64,000 nucleotides of DNA from NCBI RefSeq assembly GCF_017498545.1, contig NZ_CP071793.1, positions 7,308,256 to 7,372,255 on the forward strand, read 5' to 3'. The position numbers were made by a program, and so were the translations under genes. How positions within the stretch are numbered: the first letter of the stretch is position 1; the number at the start of each line of letters is the position of its first letter. Below, in pieces: positions 18,066 through 48,888 of the stretch. The DNA is from Sulfidibacter corallicola (GTDB lineage: Bacteria; Acidobacteriota; Holophagae; Acanthopleuribacterales; Acanthopleuribacteraceae). The notes beneath the pieces were generated by a model. It had not been told where the DNA came from and made no database searches. It saw only the letters and a program-made list of their open reading frames with translations.

Positions 18066-19424
18066 TCAGGGGTTCGCGCCCGATTGGCTGCTGGATCCAG
18101 CCCGTTCCTTGCCTTGTCGCTGACGTCGTACTTCGTAGCGTTGGTACAACGCCTGGCCTTTCTCTTCCTGGCCGGTGGCCTTATAGACGGCGTAGAGCCG
18201 GTAGAACAGCATGTTGGGCGACACCCACAGAAAGCGGTCGGCCCGTTCCAGGTGGTGTTGGCAGCTTTGGGCCTCGCGGGCTTCCCAGGCTTGCAATCCG
18301 GCGCGGTAGTGGTAGTGGCCCAACCCGTCTTTGACCACCGCGGCCCATAGAAGAACGATCAAACCCGCCGCCGCCCATCCGGATCGGAATCGTTTGGAAA
18401 GGAGCTGGGGCACCCAAACTATCGTCAGCCATCCCAGACACATACCCATGCAAAATGCGAGGAAGATGCCGATCCCGTAGAGCTCCGAATAGATCAACCC
18501 GACCGCGGCGGTCATGGCCCAGAATCCCAGTTCGACGGCCAGTGGCACCGGTTCGAGACCGTCGGGTAGGGCGCGCTTCTGCGGTTCTCGATTCTCCTTG
18601 GCGGGCGAACTCATGCTGAGCGCGTCGGTGGGACAGGCCGCCACACAGGACATGCACCCGGTACAGCCGATCGCGGCCACGTGGAAACGCGTGTTGACCA
18701 TGCGCGAGACATCGAGGTCCATGGGACAGGCCGTGCTGCAATTACCGCAAGCCGTGCAGTCTCCGGTCCGCCGGACCTTGTAGCGGGCGGCGCGCTGCCC
18801 CAATCCGAAAAGGACGCCCCATGGGCACAGTGTTCGGCAGAATACGCGTCTTCCCAAAAAAAGAGGCATGATCGCCAATACCATTAATAATGTAAGAGAG
18901 CCTTGGAGCCAGCCTGGCAATAATTCCCACGGCTCGGTCAATGTCAAATCTATCGAAACCGGCGGAAGTGTGCGCGTCCATCGATTGGCGATCGCCTCCC
19001 AAGCGAAATACCAGATAAGCACGAAGCCGGCGGCGAGCGGGCCGAATCGCAACGGGAATCCGCGCATGCGAATGCCCAGTTTGTGGTAGAGCGATTCCAG
19101 CAGGTCGTAGCTCAACCCGATGTGACAGATCCAGCCGCAGAACCAGCGACCCCAGACCAGGGTCAACCCCAAAAAGGTGAGGAAGAACAGGCCGCCGGCG
19201 GTGAGCACGTTGCGTTCGATGAAATTGCGGAAGAGCTCCTGCATGTCGATGGCGCCGATGTGGTGCCAGCCGCGCGCATACCACAACCACAGATGCAGTC
19301 CGATGAGTCCGTGGACCACGCCGAAGGCCACCAGCCGGCGCCACGTCAGGCGGCGCATCCTGATGGAAATCGGCGTACGCGGGGAAGAGGGTTCGGCGGC
19401 GTGTTCGGCAAGAGGTCGGGTCAT
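18066..19424 (-). CDS. Polytopic membrane 4Fe-4S polyferredoxin (NapH/MauN/CcoG-like)
   Basis: Two CxxCxxCxxxCP clusters (CTACGNCSTACP, CTGCMSCVAACP). Several hydrophobic helices. I place the start at the internal ATG at 19424 with a GAGGA RBS. The ORF track starts at 19568, and its first 48 residues look non-coding. Confidence 0.6.
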   Translation of the reverse strand: MTRPLAEHAAEPSSPRTPISIRMRRLTWRRLVAFGVVHGLIGLHLWLWYARGWHHIGAIDMQELFRNFIERNVLTAGGLFFLTFLGLTLVWGRWFCGWICHIGLSYDLLESLYHKLGIRMRGFPLRFGPLAAGFVLIWYFAWEAIANRWTRTLPPVSIDLTLTEPWELLPGWLQGSLTLLMVLAIMPLFLGRRVFCRTLCPWGVLFGLGQRAARYKVRRTGDCTACGNCSTACPMDLDVSRMVNTRFHVAAIGCTGCMSCVAACPTDALSMSSPAKENREPQKRALPDGLEPVPLAVELGFWAMTAAVGLIYSELYGIGIFLAFCMGMCLGWLTIVWVPQLLSKRFRSGWAAAGLIVLLWAAVVKDGLGHYHYRAGLQAWEAREAQSCQHHLERADRFLWVSPNMLFYRLYAVYKATGQEEKGQALYQRYEVRRQRQGKERAGSSSQSGANP

Positions 19425-20111
19425 GGGGCAATCCTCGACATGGCGGGGTGGCGCGCGTATGCCGCGCAACGATCGGATCGATGGACCGCCGATCGTGGGG
19501 GTATCGAACGCGACGTGAATCGGAAATGGATTTTTTCCCAATCTGCGGTCACGGTGAGTTTTCGCCACGGAGGAAACGGAAATTAGACGCTGTTCGCGCT
19601 GTGTTTTATGGATTTATGTGCTCGTTTCCCTCTGTGGTTCCTGTCCGCGGTGGTTTGGAAGGACCTTGGTTTGCAGAACGATTTGACGGGACACGTTCCC
19701 GACTCGCGTCGAGCTACCATTAAATCACGAAACTTTCGGATGGCCGCGCTCTTTAGCCCAACCAGCGGTGGGTAGGGTCCGGTGCCACGTCCCATGACCC
19801 GTGGTTTCGGTTAGGATCGGCTCGGGCGAGGAGACCGATCTGCCGTGCCGGCACCGGAGATCCGGCTCATCGCACCGGGCTCCTCATGGGTGCTGCGGCA
19901 TCCGGTCTTTCAACCACCACAAATTCAAGCGGGAAGGCATTCTTGTCGTATGATTGGAAGATCTCCCCCCTCAAAGACTCAATGGTTTCGATCATCTCGA
20001 TGTTGCCGCTTCTCGGCAGGGCTCCTCGTGCTAGAATGTCCGGCCGCTCTGCCATACCTGGCGTGGCTGTAAATACCTCGATGTTCGATAAATCACGATT
20101 ATTGTGGAAAG

Positions 20112-23015
20112 TTGTTGACCGTGACTGTGACCAAGGTCCCCGATGCACAACGAAATCTTTTTCTTCGCCAGCTCCACGGTGCCGCCTTCTACCCCGGCAC
20201 CTCCAAACGCGCCCTGAGTCGGCTGTTGTGGCGTGCCGGCGAGTACGGGTTCGCGGAGGCTGGAACCTCGATCCTGGAAGCGCTCAAATCTCGCTATCCG
20301 ATGGTGTTGTATTGCGGGGCCTGGGCCGCGGGGCGGTGTGAGATCGATGGTGCTCGAACTCGTCTGGACTCGATTCAGCGAACGCAGCAACTTCCCGATT
20401 ACGTTCGCTTCATGGCGGGAGAAGCGTGGCGCCATCTCTTGACGCCCGATGAGAAAGCGACTTTGCGAGACCGTGGGTTCGGTGATCTCCCGGCCTGGTT
20501 TCGCGAAGTCTGCCAAGAGCCCGATTCCTTCGTGATGCGATTCCGCGAAATGCTCTCGCAACAGGCGGGGTTTCATCACGCCGCTCTCATCTGGGATTTG
20601 TACCGGATCGACGATCCGGAAGATCGGCGGGTGCGGCATTGCCTGCTCGCCGCGCTTACGGAGTTGCCACTGCGACCCCCGCTCTTCCGATTCCTGCGGC
20701 GAATTTTCAAGGCGGCGATCTTCCGCGGCGATGCGGAAGTGTTCGGAATCCTCGCCTATCGTTTCGAAGTGGAGCGTGCGCAGCGGGTTTCGGGGTGGGG
20801 TTGGGTGACCGACGGGCCCCAGGTCTTCAAGGTCCGGCTGCCTGACGAGTTCGCCAAGGACGGTTGTAAAATCGGCTTTCTCTCGTCTTCCAAAGATTAC
20901 TTGCGGCGCGCGTCCTGGCGCACGCTGAAGCGGATGGCCGAAACCGACGGTGCCACCTACGTTCGGTTTGCGGCGGAGCTGCTGCGTCACTATCGCGACG
21001 AAGACGGCAAAGAACCACGGAGCTATCGCCACTACGACGGCATCGAGGAAACCTGGCACGAAGTGGTGGCCGACCGTTTCGCCGCCTGTTTTCTGATGAA
21101 CCAGGTCATCTACGGGCGGAGCCCGCGCTACCGGCGCCCCCCCGGCCGCCTTCACTGGCGCTGTCGCGGCGATTGGGTGCCCGGCGATGCACCGCCCGAC
21201 GTGCGCGAGGAGGCCTTTCCCGAACTTTGGGATCAACGCCCCGATTTGTTGCGCATGCTTCTGCTGCGCGGTCGTTGCCACCGGGTTCACCAGTTCGCGG
21301 CAAAGGCGCTCGCCGATCGGGCCGACACGACCTGGACCCTGCAGGATCTGGTCGCGCTGCTGAACGGGCCCTTTCCGGAAACGCGGGCCCTGGGCTTCCA
21401 CTTGGTGCGGCATCGCCATGCCGACCTGATCGATGAGCCGGAGATCGCCACGGCGTTGCTGTTGTGCCCGGAACCCGAGGCCCATCGCCTCGCACTCGAT
21501 CGCGCGCCCGATCCCTCCTGGCCGGCCGGTCACCCAACCGTGGTGGTGCGTTGGGCGCTCAGCACCCATCGCGACGTTCGACGAGCCTGTCTCGACTGGC
21601 TGGCCACCAACCCGCTGCAGCCCGATTTCGCCGAACACATTTTGCACCGTCTGACCGTGCGGCTGGCCTCCGGCTTGTCCGGGACCCTCGAGACGGCCTG
21701 GGCTCGGGATGTGGCCGCGATCGTCGAAACCCTGGGTGAACGCGTCGAAGCCACGGGGGACCTGGCGCGGGCGGGCTTCGCGCCCAGTGAGACCGTCGCC
21801 TTGGAGATGATGGACCATCCTTGCGAGGACGTGGGACGCCTTGCCCTGAGGCTTTTGGCGCGTTTCGCGGCAACGCCCGAATCGCTTTCCGATGGCTTTT
21901 GGATGGCGGTCTGGCGGGCCGAGGACCGCTACGAATTGGGTTTGGACTTGTTGGGCCGCCTGCCGGATTCGGCACTCCTGCGTCACGCCGCCGCGCTGGT
22001 CTTCTTTTGCCGCGATTCGCGCGCGGCCGTTCGCGAGCGTGCGGGCCTGCTGCTGGATCGGCTGTATTCGATTTCCCCGGAGTGCCGCGAACTGGCGGTT
22101 CAACTGCTGTGCCGCGATCTGCTGCGGGCACCCGATTCGCCGGAGGCGCACCAGGCGCGCCTGGAGGTCCTGTGCGGTCCCCTGCAGTGCGGCCTCGTCG
22201 CGGTGGACGATGCCCTGCTGCGACGCCTCTTGGCGGTGCCCCATGCCGCGGCACACCGGCTCGCGGCACAGATCATCCGCCATTTTCGCGATGTGGCGGA
22301 TTTCGAAGAGCGCGACCTGGTGCGGCTGGCGGATCACGTCTTGCCGGAACTGCGGGTGTTCGCGGCCTCGGCCGCCCTGCAGTGGTTCGAGCCGGAGACG
22401 CGACGTTGCTCCGCCGTCTGGGCATCGTTGTTGGACAGCGAATGGGAGGATACCTTCGAATTCGCCACGGCCCTCTTCGAAGAGCTTTTGGCGGAAGGCA
22501 AGCTGTCGGCCGATGCCTGGCTCGCATTGCCTCGTGCCAAAAGTGACCGGGGTCGGGATTTCAGCCGGCGATTGCTCGATTTCGCGCTGAATGACGTCGG
22601 ATCTTGGCCGCATCTGGTCGAACTCGCGAATCGTGCATCGGGTGCGCTTCTCGAACGAATCGCCGTCCGGATGCTGGCCGAGGTGGACCGGGCGCCCAAA
22701 CACGTGGCCGAATTCGGCCCCGTCATGGGTGCCCTGTTGACGAACCGCGCCGCTTCTGGAACATTGCGTCGCCGGGCCCTGGAACCGGTTTTGGACGGCA
22801 TGGTCGGTGGCCGGTTGGCGCCCTCCGTCGGTTGGTCCTGGTTGAACCGCTTACAGAGCCGGCTGCCCGCCAGGCGGCGCGGCGAATTGGTCGCGGCCCT
22901 CGCGGCCAAAGGGCTGGTGTGGGCACCGGGCGCCAAGAAAAAATCTCCGCCTTTCGGGTTGATGGTACAGCGGGTTCCCGTTCCCGTTCGCGAAAGCCGG
23001 CGCGTCACGACCTGA
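20112..23015 (+). CDS. Large (967 aa) predicted all-alpha/HEAT-ARM-like protein of unknown function. Candidate partner or effector of the downstream retron-type reverse transcriptase.
   Basis: TTG/GTG start region. Very strong GC3 bias along the whole plus-strand frame. The overlapping 890-aa minus-strand ORF is R/Q/G/P-rich and looks like an antisense artefact. Leu/Ala/Arg-rich with helical periodicity. No catalytic motif recognised. Ends 494 bp before the RT ORF on the same strand. Confidence 0.55.
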   Translation: MLTVTVTKVPDAQRNLFLRQLHGAAFYPGTSKRALSRLLWRAGEYGFAEAGTSILEALKSRYPMVLYCGAWAAGRCEIDGARTRLDSIQRTQQLPDYVRFMAGEAWRHLLTPDEKATLRDRGFGDLPAWFREVCQEPDSFVMRFREMLSQQAGFHHAALIWDLYRIDDPEDRRVRHCLLAALTELPLRPPLFRFLRRIFKAAIFRGDAEVFGILAYRFEVERAQRVSGWGWVTDGPQVFKVRLPDEFAKDGCKIGFLSSSKDYLRRASWRTLKRMAETDGATYVRFAAELLRHYRDEDGKEPRSYRHYDGIEETWHEVVADRFAACFLMNQVIYGRSPRYRRPPGRLHWRCRGDWVPGDAPPDVREEAFPELWDQRPDLLRMLLLRGRCHRVHQFAAKALADRADTTWTLQDLVALLNGPFPETRALGFHLVRHRHADLIDEPEIATALLLCPEPEAHRLALDRAPDPSWPAGHPTVVVRWALSTHRDVRRACLDWLATNPLQPDFAEHILHRLTVRLASGLSGTLETAWARDVAAIVETLGERVEATGDLARAGFAPSETVALEMMDHPCEDVGRLALRLLARFAATPESLSDGFWMAVWRAEDRYELGLDLLGRLPDSALLRHAAALVFFCRDSRAAVRERAGLLLDRLYSISPECRELAVQLLCRDLLRAPDSPEAHQARLEVLCGPLQCGLVAVDDALLRRLLAVPHAAAHRLAAQIIRHFRDVADFEERDLVRLADHVLPELRVFAASAALQWFEPETRRCSAVWASLLDSEWEDTFEFATALFEELLAEGKLSADAWLALPRAKSDRGRDFSRRLLDFALNDVGSWPHLVELANRASGALLERIAVRMLAEVDRAPKHVAEFGPVMGALLTNRAASGTLRRRALEPVLDGMVGGRLAPSVGWSWLNRLQSRLPARRRGELVAALAAKGLVWAPGAKKKSPPFGLMVQRVPVPVRESRRVTT

Positions 23016-23544
23016 ACCGGCTCGGTGGCGTGCCCGTCACGCCGTCCATTCTTTTTCTGGATTTGATTGTCATGAAGATCGAAACGAACATGCGACGACG
23101 TCCCGGCTCGACCGTTCGGGACCTATCGAAACCGGGTGATCGGTGGCACCCCTTCTTTGGGCGGTGGGCACCGGTTAGGATAATGGCGAGGCTGGCTTCG
23201 GGCGCCGGTGCCGGGCTCGCTCGGAGCGAGTCGCGCGTTACCGTTTTCCAAAAATCCGTTTTGGGCTATGATGTGCGCACCCCGATCGGGGGATGCGACA
23301 CCGACCGACCGCCTTGCATCCCGGATGGCGGATCGCCATCCCTGCTTTCAGCCACGACATGCATCACCGGCCGGCCTTTGGCACACCGGGGCCTTTTCCG
23401 AAATCCGCATTACGGTCTGAATTCCGTGAACTTAATGCGTGCTTTCGGCACGACCCCGCCGATGGCTGAGCCGTCCGGTTCCGAGAAGTCGACGAAGGTT
23501 TCGGGTCGGTGTCGCCCTTGCTCGGGCAGGGGAGGTGCGGTGCT
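23016..23544 (+). ncRNA. Candidate retron non-coding RNA (msr-msd) region upstream of, and overlapping, the RT start. Exact boundaries not determined.
   Basis: Noncoding stretch rich in local hairpins: GCTCGCTCGGAGCGAGTC, GATGGCGGATCGCCATC, GGATGCGACACCGACCGACCGCCTTGCATCC, CGTGCTTTCGGCACG. Its position is what retron architecture predicts. The a1/a2 repeats and the branching G were not pinned down. Confidence 0.3.
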
Positions 23545-24882
23545 GTGATCGATCCGCATACATCCCCCGACCCCTCCGGCTTCGCACCTTCCGGACCTGA
23601 AGCGTCTTCGGACCAAAGGTTGCCGACCGTCGATTCGCAGGACCAGGTGGTGGATCGCGATCTTTGTCTCGATCCCTTGCGAACCGAGTTGGAACAACGC
23701 CTGGGCGATGAGGCCCGGCGCCGACTTCGTCGTGAAAGGAACCTGGCTGCCCGACGGAGGTCCCGTACACCTCGACCCACGCCGCCAAGGGTCCCAACCC
23801 AAACGCTGACCTACCTCGGTGATCGCCTGAGTGGCGGGCTCCAAGATCGGCGCTCGCGACTGGATCGTCTGGCCGACCACCCCCAGTTGCCGGTGCTCCA
23901 CGATGCCGATGACCTGGCTGCGGCGATGGGAATCGAGATTTCCGAACTTCGGTTCCTGGCGTTCGCGCCGACGCATTCAAGAGTGAACCACTACCAGCGA
24001 TTCCTGCTGCCCAAGAAAACTGGGGGACATCGCCAGATTTCGGCACCGATGCCGCGCTTGAAGGCCGCCCAACACTGGATCTACCAACGGATTCTGGCTC
24101 AAGTTCCCGTCCACCGGGCCGCCAAGGGGTTTCTGCCCGGCCATTCGATCGTGGACAACGCCAGACCGCACGTGGGCGCCGACGTGGTGATCAACATGGA
24201 TCTGGAGAACTTCTTTCCCACCATTACTTTCGCCCGGGTCAAGGGTCTCTTTCGCACCTTGGGGTACAGCGAGCAGGTCGCCACCATCCTGGGCCTGCTC
24301 TGTACCGAACCCGAAGTGGAGACCTACGAGTGGTTGGGCGAGCGATACCACGTGGCGCGCGGGCCAAGGTTTTTGCCCCAGGGGGCGCCTTCTTCGCCAC
24401 CGGTCACCAACCTTCTGTGCCGGCGCCTGGATCGCAGGCTCGACGGACTGGCGCGAAGCCTGGGATTCCATTACACCCGGTATGCCGATGACCTGACGTT
24501 TTCCGGTTCGGGCGAGGCCACCGACCGGGTGGGCAAACTGCTGGGCAAGGCGCGCGACATCATCGAACACGAGGGTTTCAGGCCTCATCCGAAAAAGACC
24601 CGCGTTTTGCGAGCCGGCCGCCAGCAGGAGGTGACCGGCATCGTGGTCAATCGAAAGTTGTCTCTGGATCGAAAGACGTTGCGCCGGTTTCGAGCGGTTC
24701 TGTTCCAGGTCGAGCTCGACGGGCCCGCCGGCAAACGCTGGGGTAACGGCGGAGATCTGCTGGCTTCGTTGGAGGGTTACGCCCATTTCGTGCACATGGT
24801 CGACGCGGAGAAGGGCCGCGCGTTTTTGGATCGGGTCGAAGCCATCAAAGCGCGTTACGGATCGGATTCGATCGAGTTGTGA
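23509..24882 (+). CDS. Retron-type reverse transcriptase (RNA-directed DNA polymerase)
   Basis: RT domain 1 LPKKTGGHRQISAP. NAxxH (VDNARPHVG). Domain 3 VINMDLENFFPTI. QGxxxSP (LPQGAPSSPPVTNLL). YADD catalytic box (YTRYADDLTFSG). VTG (QQEVTGIVVN). The ORF-track start is a GTG at 23509. An alternative GTG at 23545 has a GGGGAGG RBS. The ~150 aa N-terminal extension may partly be msd DNA rather than protein. Confidence 0.85.
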   Translation: MSPLLGQGRCGAVIDPHTSPDPSGFAPSGPEASSDQRLPTVDSQDQVVDRDLCLDPLRTELEQRLGDEARRRLRRERNLAARRRSRTPRPTPPRVPTQTLTYLGDRLSGGLQDRRSRLDRLADHPQLPVLHDADDLAAAMGIEISELRFLAFAPTHSRVNHYQRFLLPKKTGGHRQISAPMPRLKAAQHWIYQRILAQVPVHRAAKGFLPGHSIVDNARPHVGADVVINMDLENFFPTITFARVKGLFRTLGYSEQVATILGLLCTEPEVETYEWLGERYHVARGPRFLPQGAPSSPPVTNLLCRRLDRRLDGLARSLGFHYTRYADDLTFSGSGEATDRVGKLLGKARDIIEHEGFRPHPKKTRVLRAGRQQEVTGIVVNRKLSLDRKTLRRFRAVLFQVELDGPAGKRWGNGGDLLASLEGYAHFVHMVDAEKGRAFLDRVEAIKARYGSDSIEL

Positions 24883-24938
24883 GGCATGCGGCAACGTCAA
24901 TACCTCGGCTCACGGGCACTTCGAAGCGGTTTGTTTCG

Positions 24939-25305
24939 CGAGAATGAACCCCGATCGCGTTCTGATCCGGCGTGCGCCCAGCTCGATTTCGAGAATGAAA
25001 CATCGCGAAGCGAGCCGCTTCGAAGAGCCTCCACATGCGCAAGAGACGTAAAGCCTGTAGGTTGAGCAGCTTGCTCAACCAGTCGTAGCAACCCAGGCAG
25101 CGACAATCAATTACGCCAAAGAGCGAAGCCGATCATTCTCCTCACGACCCCAATCGAAAGCCGTGAGGTCCAAAGTTCCCGCATCGGGAGAGCGGCGTCA
25201 GGCCTGTAGATTGAGCAGCTTGCTCAACCAGTCGTAGCAACCCAGGCAGCGACAATCAATTACGCCAAAGGGCGAAGCGCACCCTTCCCCGGATCGCGTT
25301 CCGAT
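24939..25305. repeat. Cluster of MITE-like family-A repeats. A 77-bp unit with the palindrome TTGAGCAGCTTGCTCAA is directly repeated at 25052-25128 and 25201-25277, and the leader part (24956-25060) recurs at 48303-48387.
   Basis: Direct reading: two near-identical 77-bp copies with 2 mismatches, flanked by the related motifs CGCGTTCTGATCCGGCGTGCGC and CGCGTTCCGATCCGGAGTGCGGG. Confidence 0.75.
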
Positions 25306-26224
25306 CCGGAGTGCGGGATCCCATGAATTCGCCGCTTCAGGGGCCGTCATTTCATAGTGATCGTCGCATCGAGTCGCGATGTGGAAGCGATGGGAACCGA
25401 AACTATGCGTTTCCGCTTGTGAAACTATGGATGATTCCTCATGGGGTAATAAAAGTGGTGCGCGTAAATGGACGAGACCGACGTTCGAGCGCGCGGGTCC
25501 TGCGGTCTACGGCAACGCAACCGGTGAAGCCCGATCGAGCGCCTTGTTCAGCCGGAAGAAGGCCCGATTCGCGCGCATCGTGGTCGACTCTCTCATGAAA
25601 ATGGCTGTCCCGTTCGGGTCGGTTCTGTGTTAAGTGTCTTTAGTGCACTTGAAATATTGTATTTACGTTGAGGTTGTTAGGGCTCATCGGAAGATGAACC
25701 CTGTTGTAGAGCGATGCCCGGAAAAAAATACCGAGGCGACAAGGCGGTCGTTTCGCGCCACTGGAGAGGGAAAAAATCGGGCACATGCTGTCGCATCGAC
25801 GAGCGACATAGGGCTTGCGAGCGTCCCTGAAACCCGAGCCGGATGAGGCGAAGCGTCTGAAAGGCACGGATTTGGATTCCGGCGCTGCCGGTTCGGAGGT
25901 GGGCTGTACGGGTGGATTTCGGCTGCGATCCGGGCTGCGTCGCGCATCGATGGATTGTCGCCCAGGGAGGACCAGCAAATAGGCCCGAGATTTGCTTTGT
26001 GATGTGGCATACGGTCTGTAAAGACATTCGGATTTCTGAATATTAATCATCGAATTGCATGTCAGAAGAATGGAGTCAAAGCCATCCACACATTGATCGG
26101 TTAGGATGCGAAGGCCGCCATGAATCGCCAATTCTTTCAATGAAAACGGCCGTTGAATCGCATCTCCATACTTTCATCAATTTCTTTGTTTAACCTAAGC
26201 ACTGTTCCGCAAAGGGAGGGTTCC

Positions 26225-28519
26225 TTGAGTAAGTTGGAGTGGGCGAGTTCCGCCAAACGTCTTCTTCTAACGGTGGTGTTCACCGGAATCATGCTTCTGC
26301 CGAGTGCGTTGATGGCTCAGTCGTTCAGCGTCACCAATCGAACGTCCTCGGCATCCAATTTCGCCGAGAGGGACGGTTCGGTAACCGTCACCGTCGATGT
26401 CCGCAATACCGGTTCTCAGACCTTGACCAATGTCGTACCTCACTTAGTAGCACCCGCTTGTGCCGAATATCTAGGCTCGACCATTTTTAATACTACTTAT
26501 CTTGGGTATGGAAGTTCGCAGGTGCTCGCGCCCGTACCTTCATGGGGTCCCAATACCACCCAGTCACTGACCTTCAACATCCATATGGTCGACAACAGTT
26601 TCATGTGCCCCGATCTGGGTCCGGCCAATCTTCCGGCCGATTGCTTGACGTTCGAAGTGGGGTTCACCCACGCCGCCAACCCCAACCTGGTTTTCGCGTC
26701 CGATTCGTCCAATCAATTGCGTTTCTCCAATCCTCCCGCCGATGGAATTCGGGTCGTCGACGTCATCTCCGACACCAACCCGGCGCCGCGGACGGAAGGC
26801 GGCGGTTGCAGCCTCTACAACTCCTCGAGCTGGACCGTCCCCATTCGCGACCAGGGCCTCAACCGCTCGCAGGTGGACAACACCAGCTATCGCCTTTTCC
26901 TGGGCATCGATTGGAACCTCAACGTCAACAACGTGCCCAGCGGCGAGAATCTCGAGTGGTGGAACGGCCTCGCTTCCTTCCAGTATCCCCTCGGTAACTC
27001 CTATTACGACCTCTGGGTCGCCCTGGTGCGCGAGGAAATCGCGATGATCGACCCCTCGACCCAAATCTTCGACGCTTCCAATCGCCTGTTCCCCCAACGC
27101 GAGTTGGGCGGGCATGGTCTCTTCAACCAAATCGACTGTGACAGCGAGACTTGGAACTTTTTCGACATTACCGAGCAAGAGGTCAACGGTCAGACGGTAC
27201 GCGAAGTCCTGACGTCCCCGGTTTCCATTCCGGTCCGTTTCCAGCAACGCAACACCCGCGTCAATTTCCGATCCGCCGCACTGTACGTGATGAACGTCAA
27301 CGGCTGTACCCAAGCCTCGGCGTTCGGGGATATCGCCAATCTGAATGCGTTCCAGTTCACCCAATTCGCGATGGACGAGGACGGCAACGCCGAAGCCGCG
27401 GTGAGCGTTCCCGCGGCCTGGCGATCTGGGAATCAGTTGACCGGCAGTTACACCATCGAGTGGTACTATCGCCAAACCGACAGTTTCGCCCGGGCTACCC
27501 GCATCGGTGGCGGTACCACCGACCCCCGCGCCCTGAGCACCGATCTGAGCCTGCCTTCCGGCGAGCCTGGCGAATACCAGATCGAAGCGCGCATCAAACA
27601 CAGCTCGGGTGCGGTGATCTCGGTCGTCTCGCCGGCCCACGGTTTGACCTATCAATCACTGGTGGAGCCGCTCTTCCTGGACGCCGAAGATCCCATCGCC
27701 GACACCTACCTGGACTTGGGCGAGATTCTCGAACAACCGTTCAGCTTCCGCAACGACACGGGCGCCAACGCCACGGTGCGCATCACCTTGGGTTCGGTGA
27801 GTCCCGCCGACGCGCAGATCGCGTTCGGCACGGACAGCCAGGGCCTGGTTCACGGGGCCTGTGCCGACAGTCGCCAGGTGATCAGTGTGGGCGTAAACAA
27901 CGGATCGACCTTGAATCTGGGGCTCTGGTACCGCCTGCTGCAGTTGTCGCGGGAATGCGAGTCCCTGCGGTTCTCGATCGACGTGGCCTATACCCAGGGC
28001 AGCTTCACCTCGAGCTACAAGCAGACCTTCTCCGTGTTGGGCAACTGCCAGGACGAGGCCGCCAAGTGGTTTGAAAGCGACTTCGAAAAGGCCGGCGCCA
28101 CGGTGCCCGACAATCCCTTCAACGTGGACCTGGACGGCCTGCTCGCGTTCTGGGGTTTCTGTCCCAACACCCCGCTCGCGTTCCCCGTGTTAGGGCAGGG
28201 CAACTACCGAATGCGTTGGTTCGACGGTGCCGAAAGCCTGTGCAGCGATGCCCCCGAAGCGGGTGTGAACGGCGCGGTCTGGGCCGATCCCGATCTCACC
28301 GAGACAGGCGATATCTTCGTGGAAATTCGCGATCTCGACAACGATGTCACGCGGGTCTATCCCTTCCGAATCGTGGTGGTCGACGTGTTGCCGGCCCGCG
28401 AGGACCTGCTGCCTCGTTGGCGCGAATCCACCAACGACGACGTGGACATGAACGGCGACGGTTTCGTCGACCTGCTCGACATGCTGATTTTCTATAGCGC
28501 AGGCGGCTGCGGCCGCTGA
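26225..28519 (+). CDS. Large secreted protein of unknown function with a C-terminal dockerin-like Ca-binding repeat
   Basis: Proposed TTG start at 26225 after an AAGGGAGGG RBS (the ORF track starts at a TTG at 26153). Signal peptide KRLLLTVVFTGIMLLPSALMAQS. C-terminal DVDMNGDGFVDLLDMLIF. Confidence 0.5.
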   Translation: MSKLEWASSAKRLLLTVVFTGIMLLPSALMAQSFSVTNRTSSASNFAERDGSVTVTVDVRNTGSQTLTNVVPHLVAPACAEYLGSTIFNTTYLGYGSSQVLAPVPSWGPNTTQSLTFNIHMVDNSFMCPDLGPANLPADCLTFEVGFTHAANPNLVFASDSSNQLRFSNPPADGIRVVDVISDTNPAPRTEGGGCSLYNSSSWTVPIRDQGLNRSQVDNTSYRLFLGIDWNLNVNNVPSGENLEWWNGLASFQYPLGNSYYDLWVALVREEIAMIDPSTQIFDASNRLFPQRELGGHGLFNQIDCDSETWNFFDITEQEVNGQTVREVLTSPVSIPVRFQQRNTRVNFRSAALYVMNVNGCTQASAFGDIANLNAFQFTQFAMDEDGNAEAAVSVPAAWRSGNQLTGSYTIEWYYRQTDSFARATRIGGGTTDPRALSTDLSLPSGEPGEYQIEARIKHSSGAVISVVSPAHGLTYQSLVEPLFLDAEDPIADTYLDLGEILEQPFSFRNDTGANATVRITLGSVSPADAQIAFGTDSQGLVHGACADSRQVISVGVNNGSTLNLGLWYRLLQLSRECESLRFSIDVAYTQGSFTSSYKQTFSVLGNCQDEAAKWFESDFEKAGATVPDNPFNVDLDGLLAFWGFCPNTPLAFPVLGQGNYRMRWFDGAESLCSDAPEAGVNGAVWADPDLTETGDIFVEIRDLDNDVTRVYPFRIVVVDVLPAREDLLPRWRESTNDDVDMNGDGFVDLLDMLIFYSAGGCGR

Positions 28520-48021: not shown

Positions 48022-48415
48022 GGAGAGCCACGAACAAACGGGGCGGGTGCCCAGCTCGATCTCGAGAAAGAAACGCCATACCTGGTTTCTGGCGCAGGGC
48101 CATGGGTCATTCTCCTGAAACATGAAGCAGAAACCCATGAAGGTTGGAAGCCAGGAAAGGATGGGCATTTGGTGGCGAACCATGTCCATCCTTTCCTGGT
48201 TTCAATTTTTCCTGGTTTCCTGATAAGGATTCGACGGTGGTAAGACCCCTCTCAGGTTGAACGCACCAATTCGTTTCAAGAGAGCCACGAACAAGCGGGC
48301 AATCCCGTTCGATTTCGGGAAAGAAACAACGCGAAGTGAGCCGGTTCGGAAAGCCCGTACGTGCGTAAGAGACGTAAAGCCTGTAGGTGGAGCAGCTTGC
48401 TCCACCATTCGAAGT
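48022..48415. repeat. Family-B repeat copy 2 (48025-48300) immediately followed by a family-A copy (48290-48412). The A copy has compensatory changes in the palindrome (GTGGAGCAGCTTGCTCCAC versus TTGAGCAGCTTGCTCAA).
   Basis: Direct sequence comparison with 46262-46550 and 24956-25090. Confidence 0.75.
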
Positions 48416-48888
48416 GACCTAGCATGGATTGAAATCAATCATCGAGAGACCTAGAGGCTCGACTTACCTGCTTCGCTCTTTTACCACCCGATCTTGCGAA
48501 GCCTGGGCCGCTCCGAAGTGTCGGCCGAGCCGGCCAACTTACTGCCGCGCCGACCCTCGAAGCGTGCGGGAACTCCTCGGATGGATCACTTCGAAAAGTT
48601 CATCGGGCCGATGAACCCACCTGGCACGATGAATCTCTCGACATTCGGGCACTCCGAGCAACATTGCTTCAAATGAGCGAGGCGAGAGAAATATCTCCCA
48701 TTTCGAGGGAGATACCTGCAAGGCCAGCATCTATCAATACCTTTTGAGAGAAAGCGGGGCAATTCAGGGAGCGTATCCCGCTCGAAAAAGGTCAAGCTCC
48801 CCACTTGAGTCAAAACACCCTCGGATTTCGCACTAGAAATTGACGGTTGGCTATTGCCAACGAATGCCAAAACGAGGAGAGGGTGCAC

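Follow-up and report, generated by a model that had tools for sequence, protein, structure and literature searches.

A probable msr-msd gene of a type XIII retron in a reduced locus lacking an adjacent SWIM/DEDE gene

Genes flanking the candidate msr-msd segment

In the window (the whole 64-kb stretch of DNA analyzed), the segment 23016–23544 lies between a gene for a HEAT/ARM-repeat protein and a retron reverse transcriptase (RT) gene, both on the forward strand (Table 1). The RT matched the PADLOC model RT_XIII at 5.5e-165 with 548 bits, compared with 323 bits for the next model, which places it in clade 10, that is, type XIII. Its open reading frame (ORF) is intact, and the translation, which matched Pfam RVT_1, carries the NAxxH (NARPH), VTG, and YADD motifs. 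The classical myxobacterial retrons Mx162, Mx65, Sa163, and Ne144 belong to type XIII, which is characterized by a distinct ncRNA structure and by two partner proteins, one of the SWIM/DEDE kind and one with HEAT/ARM repeats and a WGR-like N-terminus (PMC7736814). The SWIM partner, cluster-114, combines a DEDE motif, a winged helix, and a C-terminal SWIM zinc finger; the HEAT/ARM accessory protein with its WGR-like N-terminus is cluster 216 (Mestre et al. 2020).

The 967-aa protein encoded upstream matched the PADLOC profile WGR_XIII/HEAT-ARM_XIII (3.6e-135) over profile positions 109–843 of 973, and in a tblastn search with the Nannocystis exedens HEAT homologue, only residues 133–926 of that query were matched. 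The HEAT/ARM accessory gene of type XIII is therefore present, though its product (start at 20112–20220) lacks the WGR-like N-terminus, roughly 100–130 residues. The gene upstream of it (18066–19568) lies on the opposite strand. As the segment is flanked by an RT_XIII and a WGR_XIII/HEAT gene, an msr-msd beside the RT was expected. To our knowledge, no function has been established for retrons of type XIII.

The mechanically called RT ORF (23509–24882, forward strand) begins with a GTG at 23509 inside the a2 repeat described below, of which it overlaps only 7 nt with its first bases. The sequence points to the GTG at 23545 as the most likely true start: GGGAGG precedes it by 9 nt, and a 97%-identical database protein (P0001) has an annotated start at this same position and an equal length of 445 aa, as an earlier reading made from the sequence alone had proposed to check. 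That sequence-only reading had also suspected that the long N-terminal extension of the RT might be msd sequence. This candidate was rejected: the extension aligns with the one conserved at the N-terminus of type XIII RTs and is thus protein, and the RNA model described below ends at 23497. An extended N-terminus is a known feature of type XIII (myxobacterial) RTs (PMC6868368). Within this region (23545–23850), the window RT lacks the TREELYxRIRxSSKDEVILEEMIRLGFWP motif found in nearly all of 23 aligned relatives, and its basic coiled-coil stretch falls ~11 residues short of theirs. One type XIII RT homologue with 39% identity (L023) comes from a contig assigned to a Candidatus Thorarchaeota archaeon MAG; the assignment could be a binning artefact or reflect transfer.

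Table 1. Features of the retron locus, with coordinates in the window.
Feature	Position	Strand	Basis
HEAT/ARM-repeat accessory protein of type XIII, 967 aa	20112–23015	+	PADLOC WGR_XIII
Terminator-like hairpin and T-run just 3' of the HEAT stop	23024–23056	+	Weak consensus match
Promoter-like TTTCCA-16-TATGAT, 22 nt upstream of a1	23245–23272	+	Weak consensus match
a1, 5' arm of terminal inverted repeat, GCGACACCGACC	23295–23306	+	Perfect 12-nt complement of 23504–23515
Small internal loop	Between a1 and inner helix	+	
Inner helix, 5' strand GCCUU, ending directly before the priming G	23311–23315	+	Pairs with 23495–23499 in MFE and centroid folds
Predicted branching (priming) guanosine, in UUGC	23316	+	Invariant G at inner stem end
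msr stem-loop, GGAUGGCG-GAU-CGCCAUCC	23323–23341	+	Helix 1: 8 pairs
Single-stranded 3' part of msr, with conserved GCAUCAC	23342–23365	+	Conserved columns 50–56
Predicted msd (msDNA-coding), ~145 nt	23350–23494	−	Retron geometry and N. exedens alignment
Long msd stem-loop, template of the msDNA hairpin, 114 nt	23366–23479	+	Helices 2–5
Conserved tip hairpin of the msd stem-loop	23420–23432	+	
3' tail	23480–23494	+	
Inner helix, 3' strand AAGGU	23495–23499	+	MFE and centroid folds; compensation in relatives
a2, 3' arm, GGTCGGTGTCGC (RNA: GGUCGGUGUCGC)	23504–23515	+	Repeat search
Shine-Dalgarno-like GGGAGG of the RT	23530–23535	+	9 nt before GTG 23545
Type XIII retron RT, 445 aa from the likely start	23545–24882	+	PADLOC RT_XIII, Pfam RVT_1

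Anatomy and folding of the ncRNA

The sequence-only reading had flagged the DNA upstream of the RT as a candidate msr-msd without a credible ORF. The ORFs across 23016–23544 are indeed only high-GC read-throughs with no homology. A repeat search, for which terminal arms of 12–20 nt had been suggested, revealed a perfect 12-nt inverted repeat (a1/a2) whose arms lie 197 nt apart, with the end of a2 29 nt before the RT start on the same strand. The enclosed stretch, 23295–23515, folded better than expected by chance (z = −3.36; 1 of 200 shuffles as good), and the a1/a2 stem closed both the minimum free energy (MFE) and the centroid folds. Only these 3' 221 bases of the flagged segment were retained as msr-msd. 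The remainder, 23016–23294, folded no better than chance (z = −0.90; 44/200 shuffles as good) and is an unstructured spacer outside the RNA, containing terminator-like and promoter-like sites. Four terminator-like sites were found in the region, compared with 2.9 expected, while the promoter-like site was the sole one in 22900–25500, compared with 0.6 expected. The ncRNA and the RT are probably co-transcribed from a promoter near 23245–23272. Two other explanations of the spacer were discarded: neither nhmmer nor the covariance model found a second, degenerate copy of the ncRNA in it, of the kind seen in relatives with tandem copies (L002 and L057), and tblastn showed no similarity that would mark it as a remnant of a SWIM gene.

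Pairing can extend beyond a1/a2, with 23273–23307 opposite 23503–23540 (−49.7 kcal/mol, z −3.4). GGGAGG, the ribosome-binding site of the RT, would be partly hidden by this extended pairing. Among the relatives, long composite a1/a2 stems occur commonly.

All four palindromes listed in the sequence-only reading are present, and two of them proved to be elements of the ncRNA. GATGGCGGATCGCCATC (23324–23340) is the conserved msr hairpin, and CGTGCTTTCGGCACG (23439–23453) is part of the msd stem, in its 3' arm, and its pairing there is long-range, not local. The other two do not belong to the structure: GGATGC..GCATCC (23291–23296/23317–23322) overlaps a1 and the priming G, lies outside the consensus fold, and competes with it, and GCTCGCTCGGAGCGAGTC (23216–23233) lies outside the RNA, between the terminator-like and promoter-like sites, with no comparative support.

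Inside the a1/a2 stem, the inner CCUU/AAGG helix is compensated in relatives, reading CCUA/UAGG in L055 and CUUC/GAAG in L090. The G at 23316 is located directly 3' of this helix, and both it and the following C are invariant in 24/24 aligned sequences. By the published rule, the priming guanosine is found where the a1/a2 stem ends on its inner side (PMC6868368), and the position of G23316, as a predicted priming site, matches this geometry. The base before it is U in 21 of the aligned sequences, A in 2, and C in 1. The window reads UUGC, as do 21/24 sequences, and not (T)AGC; among the 24 sequences, a UAGC context was found only in the two Nannocystis-like RNAs, L050 and L055. Most validated retrons have a (T)AGC context, but deviating contexts, ACGC for example, have been described before (PMC6868368). 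We therefore regard UUGC as a variant and not as grounds for exclusion.

Homologous RNAs upstream of related RTs

Related loci were gathered from genomes (47) and metagenomes (80), and three more were obtained by exact protein look-up. A metagenome scan with the single RT protein gave no match; the alignment-based scan succeeded. With an nhmmer profile of the RNA core, homologous stretches of 185–188 nt were found, each of them upstream of a related RT and on the same strand as that RT. Directly outside the core, all 25 of the 25 full-length homologues carry complementary, a1/a2-like flanks with duplex energies of −20 to −57 kcal/mol, and the flank pairs of different homologues are unrelated in sequence. 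Complementary flanks of differing sequence in 25 homologues are the signature of a1/a2.

The consensus fold of a 24-sequence alignment contains 47 pairs. Standard pairs occupy 91.5% of its cells, compared with 67% in shuffled alignments and 34–43% when the partners were slid by 1–3 columns, and the covariation score was 0.621, compared with about 0.1 in the controls. Compensatory change was observed at 39/47 consensus pairs. In helix 1, the msr stem-loop, 99% of cells are paired and 4 of the 8 pairs show compensatory change; helices 2–5, which build the msd stem-loop, contribute 39 pairs, 35 of them with compensatory change. The window itself forms 39/47 of the consensus pairs, and the 8/47 broken ones lie in the msd stem, which makes it one of the less regular members. 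Its own MFE fold still builds the long msd stem, with the register slightly shifted.

A covariance model trained on 22 relatives and excluding the window matched 23312–23497 on the forward strand with 107 bits (E 6.3e-23). The match is unique in the 64 kb; nothing else there was significant, the next match having an E value of 1.8. A folding or covariance search of this kind was what the sequence-only reading had called for, and its central proposal, an msr-msd directly 5' of the retron RT and bracketed by a1/a2, is borne out by the 12-nt repeat, the covariation, and this single match. No retron family was found with Rfam 15 in 19000–27000 at E <= 10, and an AAC_AAD_leader match inside the HEAT gene was dismissed as chance. 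Perfect inverted repeats alone were discarded as a detector, as they gave false candidates; one was 4214–4480 in L008, a locus in which the covariance model placed the RNA elsewhere.

The window RNA is homologous to RNAs beside other type XIII RTs. Collectively, the comparative set provides a model, supported by covariation, for the RNAs of the Ne144-like branch of type XIII retrons, in which the usual priming context is UUGC, not UAGC. We conclude, with a probability of about 0.88, that the msr-msd gene of a type XIII (Mx162/Ne144-like) retron lies at 23295–23515 on the forward strand. It is an element of known kind, an ordinary additional member of its family in an unusual, reduced type XIII locus.

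Two further arrangements were observed among the relatives. Tandem ncRNA copies, each with its own a1/a2 sequence, precede a single RT in L002 (4052–4290 and 4314–4538) and L057 (4314–4499 and 4564–4748). In planctomycete relatives (L008, L009, L012, L013, L014, L017, L018, and L043), homologous RNA scoring 35–49 bits is not adjacent to the RT but lies ~2.4–3 kb upstream of it, and another gene therefore stands between the two.

These arrangements also bear on an alternative, in which the RT mRNA simply begins with a structured 5' leader, acting for example in translation or attenuation, and this leader is never reverse transcribed. Partial cover of GGGAGG by the extended pairing 23273–23307/23503–23540 would suit such a leader. 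However, the element shows all the structural hallmarks of an msr-msd and is homologous to the RNA beside the N. exedens type XIII RT. A simple RT leader is impossible in the planctomycetes, given the distance and the intervening gene, and the two tandem copies in L002 and L057 likewise speak against it, leaving this explanation highly improbable.

Comparison with known retrons and predicted msDNA synthesis

The closest comparison is with the N. exedens locus (L050). This species carries Retron-Nex2/Ne144, and L050 may not be the published Ne144 itself. There, too, the RNA immediately precedes a type XIII RT, which shows 61% identity across 80% of the query, and the RNA core is nearly equal in length to that of the window (186 versus 187 nt). 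The msr hairpin of L050, GGGCGGCG-GAU-CGCCGUCC, is the same hairpin as in the window, and both RNAs share a GC(A/U)UCAC(U/C)GG motif, the long msd stem, and flanking a1/a2. The two differ in the priming motif (UAGC in L050, UUGC in the window) and in the length of the perfect a1/a2 (17 versus 12 nt). Moreover, L050 has a gene for a 550-aa SWIM protein between HEAT and ncRNA and an RT with the full N-terminal motif, both of which the window lacks.

Retron-Mxa1 (Mx162) and Retron-Mxa2 (Mx65) of Myxococcus xanthus belong to the same RT clade with its extended N-terminus (PMC7736814, PMC6868368). Judged by their descriptions, they resemble the window in having msr-msd upstream of the RT, a long a1/a2, and a long msd hairpin. 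Their priming contexts are CAGC and GAGC (PMC6868368), in contrast to UUGC in the window. In both, the msDNA has been shown experimentally and a 2'-5' branch forms at the conserved G, whereas the msDNA and the branching G of the window retron are predictions. Retron-Eco1 (Ec86) and other enterobacterial retrons follow the same design, with a1/a2, a priming G at the stem end, msr hairpins, an msd stem-loop, and a downstream RT. However, their RTs belong to a different clade and are shorter, without the N-terminal extension, their effectors differ, and their RNAs show no sequence similarity to the window RNA, which had no Rfam match at E <= 10.

By analogy with characterized retrons, the steps of msDNA synthesis can be proposed. 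Pairing of a1 with a2, and of GCCUU with AAGGU, would bring the invariant G23316 to the stem's inner end. The RT would recognize the msr hairpin, and the 2'-OH of G23316 would prime cDNA synthesis on template base 23494. The RT would then copy leftwards across the msd stem-loop, from 23479 to 23366, and stop at ~23350; reverse transcription is expected to end in the single-stranded stretch 23342–23365. The predicted product is a hairpin single-stranded DNA of ~145 nt branched to an msr RNA of ~60 nt. We infer the msd limits from this geometry and from aligning the window position by position with the N. exedens locus; the 5' end of the DNA would be complementary to 23494, and the 3' end is approximate. 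The predicted msDNA (~145 nt, 23350–23494) folds with z = −2.87. Production of msDNA, the priming and stop sites, and the transcript ends are thus predictions, and any downstream role of the window retron is likewise something we infer.

For the locus, this analysis fixes the annotation of the ncRNA boundaries, a candidate priming G, and the likely RT start, with no hidden ORF. The interval 23245–24882 offers a ready construct to test msDNA production.

A reduced locus and apparent continued selection on the RNA and RT

A tblastn search of the whole 64 kb with the N. exedens SWIM protein found no SWIM/DEDE gene (best E 0.16), so that the HEAT/ARM protein is the sole partner in cis. Among 74 related loci with at least 3.5 kb of upstream sequence, 60 have SWIM, and the window is the only one with HEAT but without SWIM. 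The gene order is HEAT-SWIM-ncRNA-RT in every ncRNA-bearing relative with enough upstream sequence, whereas between HEAT and ncRNA the window has only 280 nt of non-homologous spacer. Given the absence of SWIM and of the WGR-like N-terminus of the HEAT protein, the system may be partly decayed.

Two metagenome contigs (L048 and L049) carry an RT that is 97% identical to that of the window. Compared with L048, the ncRNA differs at 1/221 positions and the 98 nt upstream of a1 at 1/98, whereas 25/446 third-codon positions of the RT and 11/247 positions of the downstream intergenic DNA differ. The ncRNA is therefore about 10 times more conserved than either RT third-codon positions (Fisher p = 5e-4) or downstream intergenic DNA (p = 7e-3). 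Differences in the RT fall mostly on third codon positions (25, compared with 8 at first and 9 at second positions) and comprise 25 synonymous and 15 non-synonymous codon changes. Both the conservation of the ncRNA and this distribution argue for ongoing selection, and on these sequence comparisons RNA and RT both appear to be under purifying selection.

We consider it unlikely, on this evidence, that the retron is a decaying one in which the RNA gene is recognizable by descent but no msDNA or activity is left, the SWIM/DEDE gene and parts of RT and HEAT having been lost. Such decay would account for the window being the sole locus of 74 with HEAT minus SWIM, with no SWIM in 64 kb, and for a HEAT protein without profile positions 1–108, an RT whose N-terminal motif is gone and whose coiled-coil stretch is shortened, and an msd stem with 8/47 consensus pairs broken. 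However, it is at odds with an intact RT ORF containing all catalytic motifs, with RT codon differences confined mostly to third positions, and with the roughly tenfold greater conservation of the ncRNA; in addition, the SWIM gene could sit elsewhere in the genome.

Tentatively, and with more doubt than confidence, we suggest that this lineage keeps the type XIII RT, ncRNA, and HEAT/ARM protein under purifying selection without a SWIM/DEDE gene in cis or the WGR-like domain. If so, this minimal form would suggest that an RT-msDNA-HEAT module works without the presumed nuclease or, alternatively, that the retron has been co-opted for another cellular role. Absence of SWIM together with continued selection on RNA and RT makes the locus a natural test for which of the type XIII components are required.

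Repeats downstream of the RT

Downstream of the RT, a unit of ~100 nt with the hairpin GGTTGAGCAGCTTGCTCAACC is tandemly duplicated (25042–25141 and 25191–25290, spaced by 149 nt); the 97% relatives L048 and L049 have a single copy. Since a related copy, 82% identical, occurs at 48309–48422, the unit is a dispersed intergenic repeat. It gave no Rfam or ncRNA-profile match, and the possibility that the two ~100-nt repeats were msr-like copies, raised because UAGCAACCCAGGCAGCG occurs in them, was rejected, as nhmmer --max found no match and they are part of the dispersed repeat. Just 3' of the RT stop, a 27-nt inverted repeat with 85% complementarity (24915–24941 with 25003–25029) forms a long hairpin.
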